In this document: piece after piece, positions 1-5,402 of the stretch
Layout: the number at the start of each line of letters is the position of its first letter
Position numbering within the stretch: the stretch's first letter is position 1
Origin: Escherichia phage JS98
Length of the DNA stretch: 64,000 nucleotides
Sequence record: NC_010105.1
Strand: one strand, 5' to 3'
Notes under the pieces: model-generated
Told to the model about the DNA's origin: nothing
Database searches by the model: none
Seen by the model: only the letters and a program-made list of their open reading frames with translations
Program-made: the position numbers and the translations under genes

Positions 1-161
1 AGACGAGTTACTTCATATTTACCCAGTTCAGATTTTTTTGCTTCAATACGCGTTGCGGCTAGATTAGCAGCCTCTAGTGAAGAAAATTGGACCACTTGGG
101 AAGTATTCTGCCTTACACCACCTTGTGGGTGAGTAACAAAAACAATAAGAACATTATACAT
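1..161 (-). CDS. hypothetical protein, N-terminal part only (ORF runs off the left edge)
   Basis: ATG at 161 is preceded by a GAGGAAA SD. The frame MYNVLIVFVTHPQGG... stays open to position 1. It is absent from the ORF track because it is truncated. Confidence 0.45.
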   Translation of the reverse strand, partial: MYNVLIVFVTHPQGGVRQNTSQVVQFSSLEAANLAATRIEAKKSELGKYEVTR

Positions 162-182
162 AATATTTTCCTCAGAGTAAAC

Positions 183-422
183 TTAAATTTCAGCAACGTA
201 ATCGTTATGCAATTCCCACATATCATCAGAATTATTCTTAATGATAGGAATTATCTCATTAGAGATTTCTTCTGCATAAGGGTCATTGATACAGTGGGCA
301 TCTTCAAAACGAACACCGTAATCAGACTTCTTATAGGCAAAGCCATAAATCTTTTTAAACTTAGCACGACTAATTCGTACCGGCTCATCAGACTTATCAG
401 ACAGCGGAGAGTAATACCACAT
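183..422 (-). CDS. hypothetical early protein (79 aa)
   Basis: ORF track. The ATG sits behind a conserved early-promoter leader ending GAGGAGAACACTATG. No motif recognised. Confidence 0.6.
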   Translation of the reverse strand: MWYYSPLSDKSDEPVRISRAKFKKIYGFAYKKSDYGVRFEDAHCINDPYAEEISNEIIPIIKNNSDDMWELHNDYVAEI

Positions 423-450
423 AGTGTTCTCCTCATGTTGGTGTACGGTA

Positions 451-479
451 ATAGTATCACGGTTTTCTAGAGTTGTACA
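451..479 (-). promoter_or_regulatory. T4-type early (sigma70) promoter
   Basis: Minus strand TGTACA-17 nt-TACTAT, followed by the leader TTACCGTACACCAACATGAGGAGAACACTATG. Confidence 0.55.
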
Positions 480-796
480 TCACTTCTACAATATTCTAAA
501 AATAATTTATCGTTGTCTACTGTATCCCAACGTCGCCAAGATGGATTCCAGACCAAAGCGTTGTCACCACAATCATTGAGCTTAAAATGGTCATAGTACA
601 TAGCTATGTGTCTAGTCTCGTCACCAGAGAACCCTAGTATAGGCTCGCCGTGGGTATGATACATATGATGGTGCATTGAGAGGTCGCATTTATAAAACAT
701 CTCACGTTTACCACGGACGAACAAGAAAGCTTGCCCATTCATATAGAATTCTTTATCCGTTTTCAAAAGGTATTTGAATACTGAATCTTTATGCAT
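467..796 (-). CDS. hypothetical His-rich protein (109 aa from ATG 796)
   Basis: Start moved to the ATG at 796, which has a GGTAGGAGG SD. Contains the cluster HHHMYHTHGE. Confidence 0.55.
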   Translation of the reverse strand: MHKDSVFKYLLKTDKEFYMNGQAFLFVRGKREMFYKCDLSMHHHMYHTHGEPILGFSGDETRHIAMYYDHFKLNDCGDNALVWNPSWRRWDTVDNDKLFLEYCRSDVQL

Positions 797-826
797 AAGT
801 CCTCCTACCACATCCTTGTGGTTAAA

Positions 827-1054
827 TTATTTTCCTAACGAAATACGAGTAGGTTTTTTGCCAAAATATTCTTCATAAGAACCATCTAAACGACCTGCTT
901 TAGACCGACAATACGAATCGTACTTTTTGTAATAAGTCATCTCAGTATTATAACGCGGGTGTCTATCGGCCATAATAATACTTAACGGCCAACCTTTGGC
1001 ATAATCACGAAGACCGTTTATTTTACGAATGTATCTTTTCTTTAATTTTAGCAT
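827..1054 (-). CDS. hypothetical basic protein (75 aa)
   Basis: ORF track. The start overlaps the stop of the upstream gene by 7 nt. The SD is weak. Confidence 0.45.
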   Translation of the reverse strand: MLKLKKRYIRKINGLRDYAKGWPLSIIMADRHPRYNTEMTYYKKYDSYCRSKAGRLDGSYEEYFGKKPTRISLGK

Positions 1055-1272
1055 GAGCTCGGGTACCAGATTTTACCATCGGGACGAGCAACGAAGGTGC
1101 GACCAGCTTCTTCGCCGTAACAAGAGCTATTCAGCCAATCTTCAAGACGAACTTCACCATCGTAATCGTCTAACTCAACACCAAAACTTTGAGCAGAAGC
1201 CATATCTTTTACTTTCTTATACAGGGCAGCCAGTTCAAGAGCAGCTTTTTCTAATTCATCAATATCAGTCAT
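1048..1272 (-). CDS. small acidic protein, member 5 (most divergent) of the WxSSSxxC-tail paralog family
   Basis: N-terminal amphipathic helix, acidic core, C-terminus ...KIWYPSSC. Tandem with four paralogs. Confidence 0.65.
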   Translation of the reverse strand: MTDIDELEKAALELAALYKKVKDMASAQSFGVELDDYDGEVRLEDWLNSSCYGEEAGRTFVARPDGKIWYPSSC

Positions 1273-1282
1273 TTTTTATTCC

Positions 1283-1492
1283 TTAGCAAGACATAGAGGA
1301 GCTAAACCAGAAACCTTCACCTTCTGGGATACCGTAGTCATCACGGACCCATTCGTAATCATCATATTCCGGACTAGAAGCCGGAATATATTCTTCGCCA
1401 CCAGCGTGGAAGTGCTGACCTGTTTCGTCAGCCACGGACTGGCCTTTACGTACTAATTCACGGATTTGTTTTTCGATTTCATCAATAGTCAT
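1283..1492 (-). CDS. small acidic protein, WxSSSxxC-tail paralog family
   Basis: Ends ...GFWFSSSMSC. TAAGGA stop/SD junction with its neighbour. Confidence 0.7.
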   Translation of the reverse strand: MTIDEIEKQIRELVRKGQSVADETGQHFHAGGEEYIPASSPEYDDYEWVRDDYGIPEGEGFWFSSSMSC

Positions 1493-1501
1493 TTTATTAC
1501 C

Positions 1502-1699
1502 TTAGCATTCGTAAGAGGATGATACCCAAGAGGTACCACTAATAGTAATACAACCGTTATAAAGCGTGATATGTCGTTCTAAGTCACGAACACCATCGAT
1601 ATAGATATCAGCTTCTTCGCGTTCTTCTTTACAAATCTGGATAACGTTTTCAATAGCTGCGGCGGCAGTACGGATTGCACAATCTAATTCACGAGACAT
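1502..1699 (-). CDS. small acidic protein, WxSSSxxC-tail paralog family
   Basis: Ends ...TSWVSSSYEC. Tandem coupled arrangement. Confidence 0.7.
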   Translation of the reverse strand: MSRELDCAIRTAAAAIENVIQICKEEREEADIYIDGVRDLERHITLYNGCITISGTSWVSSSYEC

Positions 1700-1708
1700 A
1701 ATATTTCC

Positions 1709-1990
1709 TTAACATTCAGAAGAAGAGGACACCCAACCACCATTTTCCAGGTCAGTTGTATAGTCATGAGTATTAACAATAGCCCATTCAGGATGACCAT
1801 CTTCTTCCCAATGGGCAAGGTCAGCTTTCAAGGCACCAGGAGAATAATAGTCACCGCCCATACCGCGAGCAGGGTATATATTAAAATGAGTCTCATATTT
1901 GTCTGCAATTTCCTCGGCACGACGAATAGCTTCATGAATTTCTTTTACTGCGGCCAGAAGCTCTGGGTTGTTATGATTATCATTCATCAT
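1709..1990 (-). CDS. small acidic protein, WxSSSxxC-tail paralog family
   Basis: Ends ...GGWVSSSSEC. Shares AEEIADKYETHF with the next paralog (CEAIADKYGIQF). Confidence 0.7.
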   Translation of the reverse strand: MMNDNHNNPELLAAVKEIHEAIRRAEEIADKYETHFNIYPARGMGGDYYSPGALKADLAHWEEDGHPEWAIVNTHDYTTDLENGGWVSSSSEC

Positions 1991-1999
1991 AGCTTTTCC

Positions 2000-2290
2000 T
2001 TAGCACATTGCTGAAGAGGAGACCCAGGCACCAACTGTAACGACACCGTTTTCAACTTCACCGCCATTGTTTTCAATTTCATCTTTAAACCACTGGGAGC
2101 ATTCATAACCAACAGGGTAGTATGTACGTCCTGAGCCATAATCACCTGTTCCGAATTGAATACCATACTTATCGGCAATAGCTTCACATTTGTGTTCGAT
2201 GATATCCACTTTATTCAGAAGAGCATAGATAGCCTTTTCTGCAGATTTCTCGTCGTTGTATTCAGGGATTTCAATTTCAATTTTATTCAT
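2000..2290 (-). CDS. small acidic protein, WxSSSxxC-tail paralog family
   Basis: Ends ...GAWVSSSAMC. ATGA overlap with the upstream membrane-protein gene. Confidence 0.7.
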   Translation of the reverse strand: MNKIEIEIPEYNDEKSAEKAIYALLNKVDIIEHKCEAIADKYGIQFGTGDYGSGRTYYPVGYECSQWFKDEIENNGGEVENGVVTVGAWVSSSAMC

Positions 2291-2640
2291 GATTTACATT
2301 CCTTAATAAAGGTTTCAAGGTCATTACGGTTGGTTTGTTTTACATACTCATTATAATTAGCCATCTCTAAAGCATATCTCTTACGGATGGGAGCATTCAA
2401 AGCATTTGTATGGCAAATATCATACACGAGAGGGATAAAATAAGCCACGACGGCCGGAGCGATTATCATATAGAAACCCATCTCAATAGGCATGACTCCT
2501 TCGATTGCAGCCATAACTGTGGTCATTACCAGACCAACCAGACCGCCGAGCATACCTGTGACAATTCCCGTGAATAAGGAAATAGCAATATCATATTCAG
2601 CCAATTGATAAACATGCGATGAAAGACTAGGCCGTTCCAT
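2287..2640 (-). CDS. small integral membrane protein (2 predicted TM helices, 117 aa)
   Basis: Start set at ATG 2640 (AAGAGG SD). Hydrophobic stretches IAISLFTGIVTGMLGGLVGLVMTTVMAAI and GFYMIIAPAVVAYFIPLVYDI. Confidence 0.6.
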   Translation of the reverse strand: MERPSLSSHVYQLAEYDIAISLFTGIVTGMLGGLVGLVMTTVMAAIEGVMPIEMGFYMIIAPAVVAYFIPLVYDICHTNALNAPIRKRYALEMANYNEYVKQTNRNDLETFIKECKS

Positions 2641-3169
2641 TTTGAACCTCTTTAGCGTATTCACGGCATTCAGCAATAAAACGATTAAGCTTCCGTTGTT
2701 GTTTACGACTTTCTAATGTGTACTCAGCAGTTAAGATACCAAGCTCGGCTTTATCATAATTTTTAATATCGGTGTAAGATGGCCGACGGTCGACCATTCC
2801 AAATACATCACCATTTTCTAAAGCCACATAGCATACTAAATGGTAATCATCGTCTGCCATATTAAGAAGCACACAATCATTGCTCTCATTTAAAGAATAT
2901 ACTGAATAACGTAGTCCAGCGAATTCCACTCGTTGAATAGCCAGATTTACGTCAATAATTTCCAAAGCATCTTCAAAAGAAAGGTCTTCAGCTAAAGCAA
3001 AAATAAAAGGTAATTTGGTAGTATCGCCACGGCTAGATGTTCTGCTTAAGAAATCGTTTGAATAGCCTAGGTCTTGGCGAATTCTATAAAGAACTGAATT
3101 GGTTTCATGGGAAAGACCACTATTTTTAAACCAATCAATATTTGATATAAGGTTATCATATAAACTCAT
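2627..3169 (-). CDS. hypothetical protein (180 aa)
   Basis: ORF track. Strong SD GGAGGAGAGGAG upstream of the ATG. No motif recognised. Confidence 0.65.
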   Translation of the reverse strand: MSLYDNLISNIDWFKNSGLSHETNSVLYRIRQDLGYSNDFLSRTSSRGDTTKLPFIFALAEDLSFEDALEIIDVNLAIQRVEFAGLRYSVYSLNESNDCVLLNMADDDYHLVCYVALENGDVFGMVDRRPSYTDIKNYDKAELGILTAEYTLESRKQQRKLNRFIAECREYAKEVQNGTA

Positions 3170-4730: not shown

Positions 4731-5348
4731 TTATTTACGGGTCTTTTCGAACTGTGCTGCGTCACCTGCAAGGCGGCGGGCTTGACGAAGTTTGTTATCA
4801 ATTTCTTCGTGCATAGGCTGGGTATACTTAAGGCCTTCAACCGTCAGGTAAAGACGATAGAGGTCCGGGGTATCTAGGTTGTTAATGTGCTGCCCATTAC
4901 GAAGGGCGTTGAATTCTCGAACGAGTTGTTTAGTTTCGGATTCGATTTCAGAAACCAAAGAAGCCAGCTGGTTATATTTTTTAACAATAGTGCTGGTGTC
5001 GAACTTGATTTTAGGTTTAGGAGCTTCTTTTACAGGCTCTGCTTTAGGTGTAGGTTTCGGCGCTGCAACTTTGGTCTGAGCCGCGGGTTTAGAAACAGGA
5101 GCTTTAGCTGGTTTAGCAGGCTTAGTAGAGCCACCGGCTACGATATCTTTAAAAGCTTTGGAAGCTTTGTAATATTCTTTCTGGCTACTAGTATCAAAAC
5201 CATACATATCATAAACGTTTTTAAAGAACTCGGTAGTGGTTTTAGTCCCGGAAATTTTATCATAAGCAGCTTGCCACATATCTTTAGTCATGCGCACGCC
5301 GGCTTCATTCAGAACGCTTTCGTTCAAAAATTCATTGTAAGTTTTCAT
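4731..5348 (-). CDS. internal head protein-like (IPIII-like) with capsid-targeting leader
   Basis: N-terminus MKTYNEFLNE matches the T4 IP leader MKTYQEFIAE, including the L-x-E prohead-protease site. Lys/Pro/Ala-rich basic core. TATAAATA late promoter upstream. Confidence 0.7.
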   Translation of the reverse strand: MKTYNEFLNESVLNEAGVRMTKDMWQAAYDKISGTKTTTEFFKNVYDMYGFDTSSQKEYYKASKAFKDIVAGGSTKPAKPAKAPVSKPAAQTKVAAPKPTPKAEPVKEAPKPKIKFDTSTIVKKYNQLASLVSEIESETKQLVREFNALRNGQHINNLDTPDLYRLYLTVEGLKYTQPMHEEIDNKLRQARRLAGDAAQFEKTRK

Positions 5349-5374: not shown

Positions 5375-5380
5375 TCTATT

Positions 5381-5402
5381 TATACAAAAAGGCCCAACCT
5401 TT
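5381..5402 (-). terminator. rho-independent terminator (repeat cassette copy 1)
   Basis: GGCCC..CCTT-loop-AAGG..GGGCC, then TTTTTG on the minus strand. Confidence 0.65.

Follow-up and report, generated by a model that had tools for sequence, protein, structure and literature searches.

Five adjoining genes lie on the minus strand of Escherichia phage JS98 (NC_010105.1) at positions 2290-1048 of the window, by which we mean the whole 64,000-nt stretch of DNA that was analyzed, and encode proteins of 96, 93, 65, 69 and 74 residues (Table 1). The array sits between e and the tRNA genes, in an accessory region that varies among T4-like genomes, and the ATG of its first gene overlaps the stop codon of an upstream e.3/e.4-like membrane-protein gene (ATGA). 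An earlier note on this DNA, made from the sequence alone, had described these ORFs as acidic paralogs with a common C-terminal tail, and their coordinates, lengths and tails were confirmed on the sequence. The note had also proposed that each TAA doubles as the SD of the next gene. This is the case at the four internal junctions, which read TAAGGA or TAAGGT with the ATG 8-10 nt further, but no GGA comes after the fifth stop codon, and the ATG of the next ORF overlaps the last codons of the fifth gene (TCATGCTAA).

Table 1. Positions of the array genes, their tails and neighboring features in the JS98 window
Feature	Positions	Strand	Remarks
Early-type site, TTTACA-17-TATAAT	3883-3855	(-)	pattern match only
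MotA-box-like middle-promoter candidate, TGCTTTA, 12 nt, TATAAT	2350..2374	(-)	about 60 nt upstream of the first ATG
Paralog 1	2000..2290	(-)	96 aa, GDYGSGRTYYP type; tail GAWVSSSAMC; PHROG 899, E = 3e-23
Tail codons W-V-S-S-S-A-M-C, paralog 1	2003..2026	(-)	codons read from the sequence
Paralog 2	1709..1990	(-)	93 aa, YGMGG-YY type; tail GGWVSSSSEC; PHROG 899, E = 3.4e-19
Equivalent tail, paralog 2	1712-1735	(-)	
Paralog 3	1502..1699	(-)	65 aa; tail TSWVSSSYEC; PHROG 4882, E = 2.4e-36
Equivalent tail, paralog 3	1505-1528	(-)	
Paralog 4	1283..1492	(-)	69 aa; tail GFWFSSSMSC; PHROG 899, E = 2.2e-13
Equivalent tail, paralog 4	1286-1309	(-)	
Paralog 5	1048..1272	(-)	74 aa; tail KIWYPSSC; PHROG 899, E = 2.6e-9
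Internal W-L-N-S-S-C motif, paralog 5	1120..1137	(-)	residues 46-51; read from the sequence
Six-codon tail W-Y-P-S-S-C, paralog 5	1051-1068	(-)	
Three small ORFs	183..1054	(-)	75, 114 and 79 aa; PHROGs 7065, 9796 and 3723, catalogued without function
Early-type promoter-like site, TTTACT-17-TATAAT	153..181	(-)	pattern match; gap of about 200 nt upstream of the DUF7277-DUF7275 gene

The C-terminal tail and the family that carries it

The whole 64-kb window has 923 stop-to-stop frames that are 30 codons or longer. Of these, 28 end in Cys and only five, those of the array genes, carry the W..SS..C tail. The tail serines are encoded differently from one paralog to the next (TCC TCT TCA; TCC TCT TCT; TCA TCC TCT; AGC TCC TCT; and AGC TCA for paralogs 1 to 5), and the tails have accumulated synonymous changes across orthologs (pS up to 0.84) with a low pN/pS (0.12-0.30), which upholds the proposal that the conservation acts at the protein level.

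An exhaustive profile search extended the family to 350 cluster representatives (50% identity) at E <= 1e-3, which are frequent among the large lytic phages that infect Proteobacteria. In 134 of 148 non-close representatives, W stands at position -7 and S at -4, and the chain ends with the Cys, where the reading frame stops exactly; S occupies -3 in 131 of the 134 in this register. Position -5 is less strict (S in 95, A in 25 and P in 11 representatives), and a few members have one extra residue past the Cys. Thus, the tail and its last Cys are conserved as the earlier note had claimed, whereas its strict form W-x-S-S-S-x-x-Cys is not: what stays invariant is the unit W-x-[S/A/P]-S-S, with two residues or none between it and the Cys. 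All five array proteins carry this unit and end with the Cys. Nowhere else is this very large family as strongly conserved as in its tail. No second Cys is present in 93 of the 148 representatives, which excludes a disulfide formed inside the molecule and a metal site built from several Cys of a single chain. A frame that ends at an invariant Cys, after an invariant W and two invariant Ser, points to a specific chemistry of the C-terminus.

The fifth tail had been regarded as degenerate, a view that did not survive the comparison. Paralog 5 combines an internal DWLNSSCYGEE with the terminal IWYPSSC, and a subfamily with the pattern DW[LNM][NS]SSCYGE plus a terminal W-x-x-S-S-C is conserved in 27 of 80 related viral loci and occurs also as phAPEC8 gp190 and Aeromonas phage 31 ORF063c. 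In this subfamily, Cys directly follows Ser-Ser, and position -3 is S, P, A or T. The internal copy continues with YGE; together with the members that extend one residue past the Cys, this indicates that a free Cys carboxylate is not essential.

Four of the array proteins belong to PHROG 899 and the 65-residue protein belongs to PHROG 4882, which is plain family membership. The catalog keeps the two entries apart although both contain the same tail, and describes for them neither a function nor a motif nor a connection with DUF7275. Pfam-A contains no model for the family: when the five proteins were scanned, the best match was FYRN (13.9 bits against a cut-off of 24), and three of the five had no match at E <= 1. 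NCBIfam and PADLOC scans of the five array proteins returned nothing usable, and a literature search found no name, structure or paper for either the small family or the DUF7277-DUF7275 protein discussed below. The profile searches assigned no known fold or function to the family, and T4 lacks it, in line with the earlier note, which had not recognized it from T4.

The proteins are true paralogs, and all five genes are under purifying selection, with ortholog pN/pS values of 0.20-0.58 that show no sign of diversifying selection on average. The bodies had been called fast-diverging; in fact, they contain two motifs conserved throughout the family, A-E-x-I-A-D-x-x-G-x-x-F and Y-G-x-G-x-x-Y-Y-P. 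The common architecture proposed for the five proteins is supported by these motifs, the N-terminal helix and the tail, except in paralog 3, a divergent short member that shares only the helix and the tail with the others. It matches the family HMM only at E = 0.13 (paralog 2, E = 1.9e-23), and its ortholog is RB69 ORF136c.

An AlphaFold model of the 96-residue paralog 1 alone was confident (pLDDT 90.9), predicting a compact folded domain with no match to any solved fold. From such modeling, the small proteins are predicted to consist of an N-terminal helix, a small beta-sheet and the conserved C-terminal tail. In the model, W89 is part of a strand and a short helix spans residues 92-95, so that the prediction for the tail, of moderate confidence, is a strand and a short helical turn rather than a disordered arm. 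The last six residues have a mean pLDDT of 74 as opposed to 88-96 for the seven preceding blocks, which fits a less rigidly packed end.

Linkage to the DUF7277-DUF7275 gene

In phage JS10, whose sequence is 97.7% identical to the window, a protein of 319 residues with the Pfam domains DUF7277 and DUF7275 is encoded by gp0120, a gene whose start is 1076 nt from the end of the array in the downstream direction. Mapped onto JS98, this gene starts about 29 nt beyond position 1 of the window and thus outside it, and the array, located on the same strand, is no more than about 3 kb away from it.

We counted the linkage in 80 viral loci anchored on the DUF7277-DUF7275 gene. As many as 191 of 194 tail-bearing ORFs were found on the same strand and at most 3 kb upstream of this gene. 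Elsewhere on the anchor's strand, only 3 among 3242 ORFs carried the tail, and none did among 6478 ORFs on the other strand. At least one tail-bearing ORF was present in 77 of the 80 loci, and a 78th has a 46-residue variant overlapping the start of the enzyme gene. The number of family copies ranges from one to six between phages. The arrangement is kept in Dhakavirus, Gaprivervirus, Mosigvirus, Biquartavirus, Lazarusvirus, Phapecoctavirus, Otagovirus and Menderavirus, and the genes flanking it differ among those genera (nrdD, primase-helicase, e.2/e.3, endonuclease VII). Moreover, T4 has neither gene and Yersinia phage fHe-Yen9-01, of the same genus, has both. When metagenomic contigs were anchored on the small family, the enzyme gene followed downstream in three of four, and the fourth ends before the position where it could lie. 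The tail family was absent near very distant DUF7275 homologs (Vibrio, Gordonia and Alteromonas phages), and no fusion of small protein and enzyme was found among 120 enzyme homologs. The enzyme family itself comprises 2563 clusters at 90% identity and occurs in 733 GenBank phage records. The small genes and the enzyme-like gene that follows them are a conserved two-part module. Since the family is nearly always located just upstream of the enzyme-like gene, the two probably work together through the tail. The linkage is one of gene neighborhood, from which physical interaction and covalent modification are put forward as hypotheses only.

The DUF7277-DUF7275 protein, about 310 residues long, has an invariant motif G-S...D-x-D...E, with G6, S7, D25, D27 and E69 invariant in 9 and also in 30 diverse sequences. 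The signature of Pol-beta-type nucleotidyltransferases is hG[GS], a D-x-[DE] on the next strand and a third acidic residue on a later strand. The AlphaFold model of the enzyme (pLDDT 87.7) comprises a first strand, the G-S, a helix, a second strand starting at D-x-D, another helix, three strands with E69 on the last of them, and an all-helical domain, an order matching what we take to be the minimal nucleotidyltransferase core. The motif and the predicted strand order suggest that DUF7277 is a Pol-beta-type nucleotidyltransferase domain. The C-terminal DUF7275 domain is all-helical with many invariant polar residues; for its invariant H128 and D-H-D-x-x-H (193-198), an HD-like reading is possible from the residue pattern.

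Database comparisons of the enzyme returned no nucleotidyltransferase. Pfam at E <= 10 matched only DUF7275 and DUF7277, NCBIfam and PADLOC searches gave nothing, PDB searches with the single sequence and with a profile produced chance matches only, and hhalign of the enzyme profile against E. coli CitX and GlnD reached a probability of 0.07. T4 nrdC.3, located relative to nrdC.2 as the enzyme gene is in Aeromonas phage 31, was tried as a positional equivalent and has no similarity to the enzyme.

Possible roles of the tail

The earlier note had offered docking, degradation or modification as functions of the tail. Docking or modification still reads best; no evidence for a host dock or a degron was obtained, and the likely partner of the tail is the product of the phage-encoded DUF7277-DUF7275 gene. 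We thus tentatively favor the view that the five proteins are partners of this enzyme, probably its substrates or else carrier/adaptor subunits, and that the tail is the site of recognition or modification, which is quite possibly correct and has to be weighed against several alternatives.

The proteins could be stand-alone host-takeover or anti-defense effectors, as the note had supposed, with bodies that bind different host targets and a tail that docks on a host machine, serves as a degron or is modified by the host; the linkage to DUF7275 would then reflect only the shared ancestry of a gene block. The variable region in which the array sits, its absence from T4, the copy number of one to six and the small, acidic nature of the proteins agree with such a role, and the RB69 copy of paralog 1 is split, which suggests dispensability. 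We nevertheless consider it unlikely, because the linkage survives relocation among unrelated genera, hardly to be expected of a passively inherited block, and the bodies display family-wide conserved motifs instead of variable surfaces. The low ortholog pN/pS also speaks against it, as do the lack of any PADLOC match, which leaves the anti-defense claim unsupported, and of any fold match to known inhibitors. The strong acidity had further been thought compatible with DNA mimicry, by which negative charge would block DNA-binding host proteins. Net charges of -6 to -12 over 65-96 residues and pI values of 4.2-4.6 in the array, close to the family median of 4.5, would suit mimics, yet 13% of the family have a pI above 5, and the strongest conservation is found in the uncharged residues W, S, S, C, G and Y rather than in a pattern of acidic surface residues. 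Comparison with solved structures, those of known DNA mimics among them, revealed no similarity, and neither resemblance to Ocr, ArdA and Arn-type mimics nor a DNA-like charge array was found in the small proteins. As mimicry would also leave the invariant tail and the enzyme linkage unexplained, we regard it as highly improbable.

A purely structural tail, which may belong to the fold or bind metal without being covalently modified, would place the function elsewhere, for instance in the Y-G-x-G-x-x-Y-Y-P loop: W could reside in the core, the serines could cap a turn, and the lone Cys could ligate a metal or bridge an oligomer interface. The predicted strand around W89 and the short helix after it, the dispensable Cys carboxylate and the single Cys of most members, as expected for an inter-subunit site, lend some weight to this explanation. 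Conversely, a frame ending exactly at the Cys in so many divergent clusters would be uncommon if the terminus had a structural role only, and the model is least confident in the last six residues. Besides the Cys, no residue that might ligate a metal is invariant across the family, and the linkage to the enzyme gene would have no explanation, all of which makes the structural account rather improbable. The proteins might also resemble ribosomal peptide precursors, in which a tail Ser would be dehydrated and the terminal Cys added to it to form a lanthionine or aminovinyl-cysteine ring. Ser stands three residues before the C-terminal Cys in four of the five array proteins, as in nearly all same-register members, and this spacing matches aminovinyl-cysteine and many lanthionine rings. 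This idea was set aside because the Ser-to-Cys spacing, kept in those members, is different in the double-motif subfamily. In addition, compact folded domains are predicted rather than leader-plus-core peptides, and the neighbors of the array, all without an assigned function, encode no Pfam domain of a dehydratase, a cyclase or a flavin-dependent Cys decarboxylase. Sulfur carriers of the DsrC/TusE kind likewise have a conserved Cys near the C-terminus; a DsrC fold with the Cys on a C-terminal arm was not found in the small proteins. Both the peptide-precursor and the sulfur-carrier versions appear very unlikely.

Returning to the partnership with the enzyme, we envisage that the small proteins, in one to six variant copies, would serve the enzyme as substrates or carrier/adaptor subunits, and that the tail would be the element it recognizes and probably modifies covalently. 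One of the two invariant serines could, for example, receive a nucleotide, or a group derived from one, through a phosphodiester, and the nearby terminal thiol might take part in the chemistry or be its purpose. Both the tail as the site of action and the nature of the chemistry are hypothetical. A more specific proposal, which we consider doubtful but conceivable, is that the nucleotidyltransferase-like enzyme installs such a group on the Ser-Ser of the tail with the thiol as the working end, constituting an undescribed phage modification or carrier system. Under this proposal, the terminal thiol would serve, for example, as a carrier on a swinging arm or as a trap, the paralogs would provide different specificities, and the fold would be new.

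Known systems offer working analogies only. GlnD, a Pol-beta-type nucleotidyltransferase with an HD domain, uridylylates PII, a small signaling protein of about 100 residues. The order of a nucleotidyltransferase domain and a helical domain and the small protein partner are alike, whereas the acceptor of GlnD is a loop Tyr rather than the candidate Ser-Ser-Cys tail, and comparison of folds did not match the small proteins to PII. CitX and MdcG attach a thiol-bearing, nucleotide-derived prosthetic group through a phosphodiester to a Ser of a small acidic carrier of about 100 residues. The likeness lies in a small acidic protein with invariant serines, a nearby thiol and an adjoining nucleotidyltransferase-like gene. 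However, the acceptor Ser of the known carriers is near the N-terminus, no CitG-like precursor synthase is encoded near the array, and the presumed carrier here already has its own thiol. In the MntA-HepT system, a minimal nucleotidyltransferase with G-S...D-x-D AMPylates the partner encoded beside it. That pair is a bacterial toxin-antitoxin system, in which a HEPN toxin is modified on Tyr, unlike the one to six acidic non-HEPN partners in lytic phages without a PADLOC match.

If the tail is modified, phage biology would gain a novel type of protein-modifying or carrier system, and two Pfam domains catalogued without function, DUF7277 and DUF7275, would be given a role; if it is not, a two-gene module and a new small fold would still be defined. 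The near-obligatory linkage to the enzyme-like gene makes the module directly testable.

Intervening ORFs and candidate promoters

In JS98, three small ORFs separate the array from the DUF7277-DUF7275 gene. Their absence from other phages makes it improbable that they belong to the core of the module. These unrelated ORFs, together with a possible separate promoter in front of the enzyme gene, count against the module reading in this phage. The earlier placement of the array in an early operon is plausible from pattern matches only. Generic sigma-70 promoter and terminator scans stayed at background level, and the MotA-box-like pattern matched nine times in the window as opposed to 3.55 expected from shuffles.

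The array and its tail

The five-gene array of JS98 makes up one side of a conserved two-gene module; the other side looks like an enzyme. ORF calling returned five minus-strand frames with the lengths and tails quoted in the earlier note (Table). Of the window's 923 stop-to-stop frames with 30 codons or more, 28 end in Cys, and the W..SS..C tail is found only in the five array ORFs. The five-gene Cys-tail feature is real and far beyond chance. The acidity of the proteins (pI 4.2-4.6, net charge -6 to -12) and the different Ser codons in their tails were likewise borne out. The genes are 9-10 nt apart, and the start of the first overlaps the stop of an upstream membrane-protein gene (ATGA). 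The proposal that each stop doubles as the next gene's SD held at the four internal junctions (TGY-TAAGGA/T, 8-10 nt, ATG) but not at the last gene, which is overlapped by the ATG of the next ORF.

Table. Features of the array, its surroundings and distant DUF7275 loci
Feature	Coordinates	Strand	Basis or setting
Paralogue 1, 96 aa	2290-2000	minus	ORF calling
Paralogue 2, 93 aa	1990-1709	minus	ORF calling
Paralogue 3, 65 aa	1699-1502	minus	ORF calling
Paralogue 4, 69 aa	1492-1283	minus	ORF calling
Paralogue 5, 74 aa	1272-1048	minus	ORF calling
Candidate early-type promoter-like site, TTTACA-17-TATAAT	3883-3855	minus	pattern match
Candidate MotA-box-like middle-promoter match, TGCTTTA-12-TATAAT (TATGCTTTA, 12 nt, TATAAT)	2374-2350	minus	pattern match
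Candidate promoter-like site before the enzyme gene, TTTACT-17-TATAAT	181-153	minus	pattern match
Alternative small protein	L016 4705-5001; L015 4630-4920; L017 4812-5963 (C-terminal part)		distant DUF7275 loci

Without their last ten residues, the 96, 93, 69 and 74 aa proteins remained weakly similar to each other, and the 65-aa protein showed no link to the other four. PHROGs placed the 65-aa protein in phrog_4882 and the others in phrog_899, both catalogued as of unknown function, and a Pfam search of all five found nothing. Orthologues in Dhaka-, Gapriver- and related viruses are under purifying selection (bodies, pN/pS 0.20-0.58; tails, pN/pS 0.12-0.30, with synonymous changes present).

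We built a profile from 17 members and ran it against 1.84 billion cluster representatives; at E <= 1e-3 it recovered 350 proteins, almost all 70-120 aa long, with the match extending to the final residue. W at -7, S at -4 and a last Cys occur in 134 of the 148 representatives not close to the query; the profile contains the tail and so favours tail-bearers, although neither the exact register nor the stop right after Cys is imposed by the search. Position -3 is S in 131 of these 134, position -5 is S (95), A (25) or P (11), and a handful of members have one additional residue beyond the Cys. The representatives have a median pI of 4.5 and a median length of 87 aa, and 93 of the 148 lack a second Cys. 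The consensus comprises an N-terminal helix that closes with A-E-x-I-A-D-E-x-G-x-x-F, followed by (A)-Y-G-M-G-G-T-Y-Y-P, an acidic linker that contains D-[Y/W], and E-G-G-W-V-S-S-S-x-x-C. The tail is the most conserved part of this large family.

The fifth tail, regarded as degenerate in the earlier note, instead represents a conserved subfamily. Paralogue 5 (...EDWLNSSCYGEEAGRTFVARPDGKIWYPSSC) has two W-x-x-S-S-C motifs, an architecture also found in phAPEC8 gp190 (DWQSSSCYGEG...VWHSSSC), Aeromonas phage 31 ORF063c (DWLSSSCYGEG...VWMSSSC) and 27 of 80 related viral loci. The shared unit is therefore W-x-[S/A/P]-S-S, with Cys two residues on or immediately after.

AlphaFold2, given the 17-sequence alignment, modelled the 96-aa protein confidently (pLDDT 90.9) as helix 14-42, short strands, helix 66-74, strands 78-91, the last containing W89, and short helix 92-95. 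Mean pLDDT is 74 for the final six residues versus 88-96 in the preceding seven blocks. Matches in BFVD were exclusively uncharacterised family members, from Aeromonas phages CC2 and 31, Yersinia phage TG1, Acidovorax phage ACP17 and E. coli phage Ro121lw. The family is catalogued yet uncharacterised, with a new predicted fold.

Linkage to the DUF7277-DUF7275 gene

Distant members stand in tandem on metagenomic phage contigs (four adjacent on L005, three on L006, two on L010), and downstream of several of them lies a gene for a protein of ~310 aa that carries Pfam DUF7277 and DUF7275; it looks like an enzyme and is called 'the enzyme' below. The four on L005 (125-1353) have a variant tail, A-G-W-[V/E]-P-S-G-L-[N/D]-C, with Gly for the second invariant Ser, and the DUF7277-DUF7275 gene still follows. 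In phage JS10, the enzyme is gp0120 (319 aa; DUF7275 E = 3e-78, DUF7277 E = 2e-26), encoded 1076 nt downstream of the array and ~29 nt beyond the window's left end. Tail-bearing members also adjoin the enzyme gene on the same strand in phAPEC8, Pseudomonas phiPsa267, Aeromonas phage 31, Acinetobacter KARL-1 and Stenotrophomonas Bhz51, phages of other genera with varying flanking genes.

The enzyme alignment, used as query in a systematic scan of viral contigs, picked out 80 loci with 11,101 ORFs, 194 of which bear the tail pattern. All but three of these (191/194) share the strand of the enzyme gene and terminate no more than 3 kb upstream of it, where they make up 13.8% of ORFs, compared with 3/3242 elsewhere on that strand and 0/6478 on the opposite one. 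At least one tail ORF is present in 77 of the 80 loci, in 56 distinct arrays of 1-6 copies. The exceptions are a locus with a 46-aa variant (...SEWESSEKCW) that overlaps the start of the enzyme gene, a locus truncated by the contig end, and a CC31-like locus with no tail ORF. The persistence of this linkage in unrelated phages, whose neighbouring genes differ, argues strongly for a single pathway in which both the small proteins and the enzyme-like protein act.

In Vibrio phage V09, Gordonia phage ClubL and an Alteromonas phage, whose DUF7275 homologues are very distant, the Cys-tail family is missing, and another small protein (Y-x-S-Y-x-G-Y ... E-V-x-P-K) is adjacent or, in the Alteromonas phage, fused; the DUF7275 family may generally pair with small partners. 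A DprA-like (SLOG-type) gene recurs a few kb from the module in phAPEC8-like, Alteromonas and Stenotrophomonas phages (L011, L017, L018), which may be ordinary synteny. In our literature search, we came across no account of the module or the tail, and none of what either protein does. Labels given in some GenBank records to these small ORFs or to the gene of the enzyme are 'tail completion protein', 'CAZy families GH13 protein', 'chromosome partition protein' or 'prohead assembly scaffold protein', and our analysis found no support for these four labels.

A putative nucleotidyltransferase and its proposed partners

Thirty diverse enzyme sequences share invariant G6, S7, D25, D27 and E69 and, in the C-terminal domain, K125, H128, R129, D193-H-D195...H198, E240, E241, E248, R249, K270, C272, S274, S277, G278 and R281. 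The AlphaFold2 model (pLDDT 87.7) begins with strand 2-5, G-S, helix 7-12 and strand 26-31, which starts at D-x-D, and continues with helix 32-41, strands 45-47, 54-61 and 64-73 (bearing E69) and an all-helical domain. This signature and the predicted core topology suggest a Pol-beta-type nucleotidyltransferase. One GenBank record labels a homologue 'putative nucleotidyltransferase'; profile methods gave the assignment no support. T4 nrdC.11 (L102 7436-8446), annotated as a nucleotidyltransferase, shows FGSHLYG...SDVDF and does not match the DUF7277-DUF7275 profile. T4 nrdC.3, next to nrdC.2 in the slot of the DUF7275 gene of Aeromonas phage 31, was rejected as the enzyme's positional equivalent, as it does not match that profile either.

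In the simplest model, the small proteins would be the enzyme's protein partners, recognised by their invariant tail, and the enzyme, if it is a nucleotidyltransferase, would place a nucleotide-derived group on an invariant Ser or the thiol. GlnD-PII, MntA-HepT, and CitX/MdcG with small acidic carrier proteins work in this way, but the likeness of each is to the model, and no test that we ran indicated a relationship. Alternatively, the small proteins could be stand-alone effectors with the tail docking on a host factor, or the tail could be purely structural or metal-bridging. DNA mimicry, raised in the earlier note, is a further alternative, for which charge is the sole basis. Ribosomal-peptide-like or sulfur-carrier chemistry at the tail is unlikely; the Ser-to-Cys distance differs in the double-motif subfamily, which argues against mechanisms requiring a fixed ring size.

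Genomic setting

Window 800-2700 shares 97.7% identity with Escherichia phage JS10 (Dhakavirus, Tevenvirinae) and matches 84 T4-like phage records, in which all genes under the match are annotated 'hypothetical'. The array region is located in the lysozyme-to-tRNA accessory block, with e.2 on one side and e.3/e.4 on the other (JS10, SP18, RB69). The family, which the earlier note did not recognise from T4, is absent there: e.2 abuts e.3, and positions 1-80,000 and 120,000-168,903 contain neither a tail-family nor a DUF7277-DUF7275 gene. Yersinia phage fHe-Yen9-01, of the same genus as T4, carries both. The RB69 orthologue of the 96-aa protein (L004 3670-3979) is in two pieces, ORF139c (...QWYEK) and ORF138c (...GAWVSSPALC); given the frameshift and the tail Ser-to-Pro change, the copy is either in decay or affected by a sequencing error.

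The MotA-box-like match, which is near-consensus, falls within the 3' end of the e.3/e.4-like gene, ~60 nt ahead of the first array ATG, and its pattern class has 9 matches in the window versus 3.55 expected. No terminator-like site precedes the array on the minus strand except a weak 5-bp stem at 2455-2443. Farther upstream, a 205-aa ORF (4731-5348, minus strand) begins MKTYNEFLNE, like the capsid-targeting sequence of T4 internal head proteins, and the T4 late-promoter motif TATAAATA lies ahead of it at 5377-5384 (minus strand); it is probably a gene for an internal (injected) head protein.
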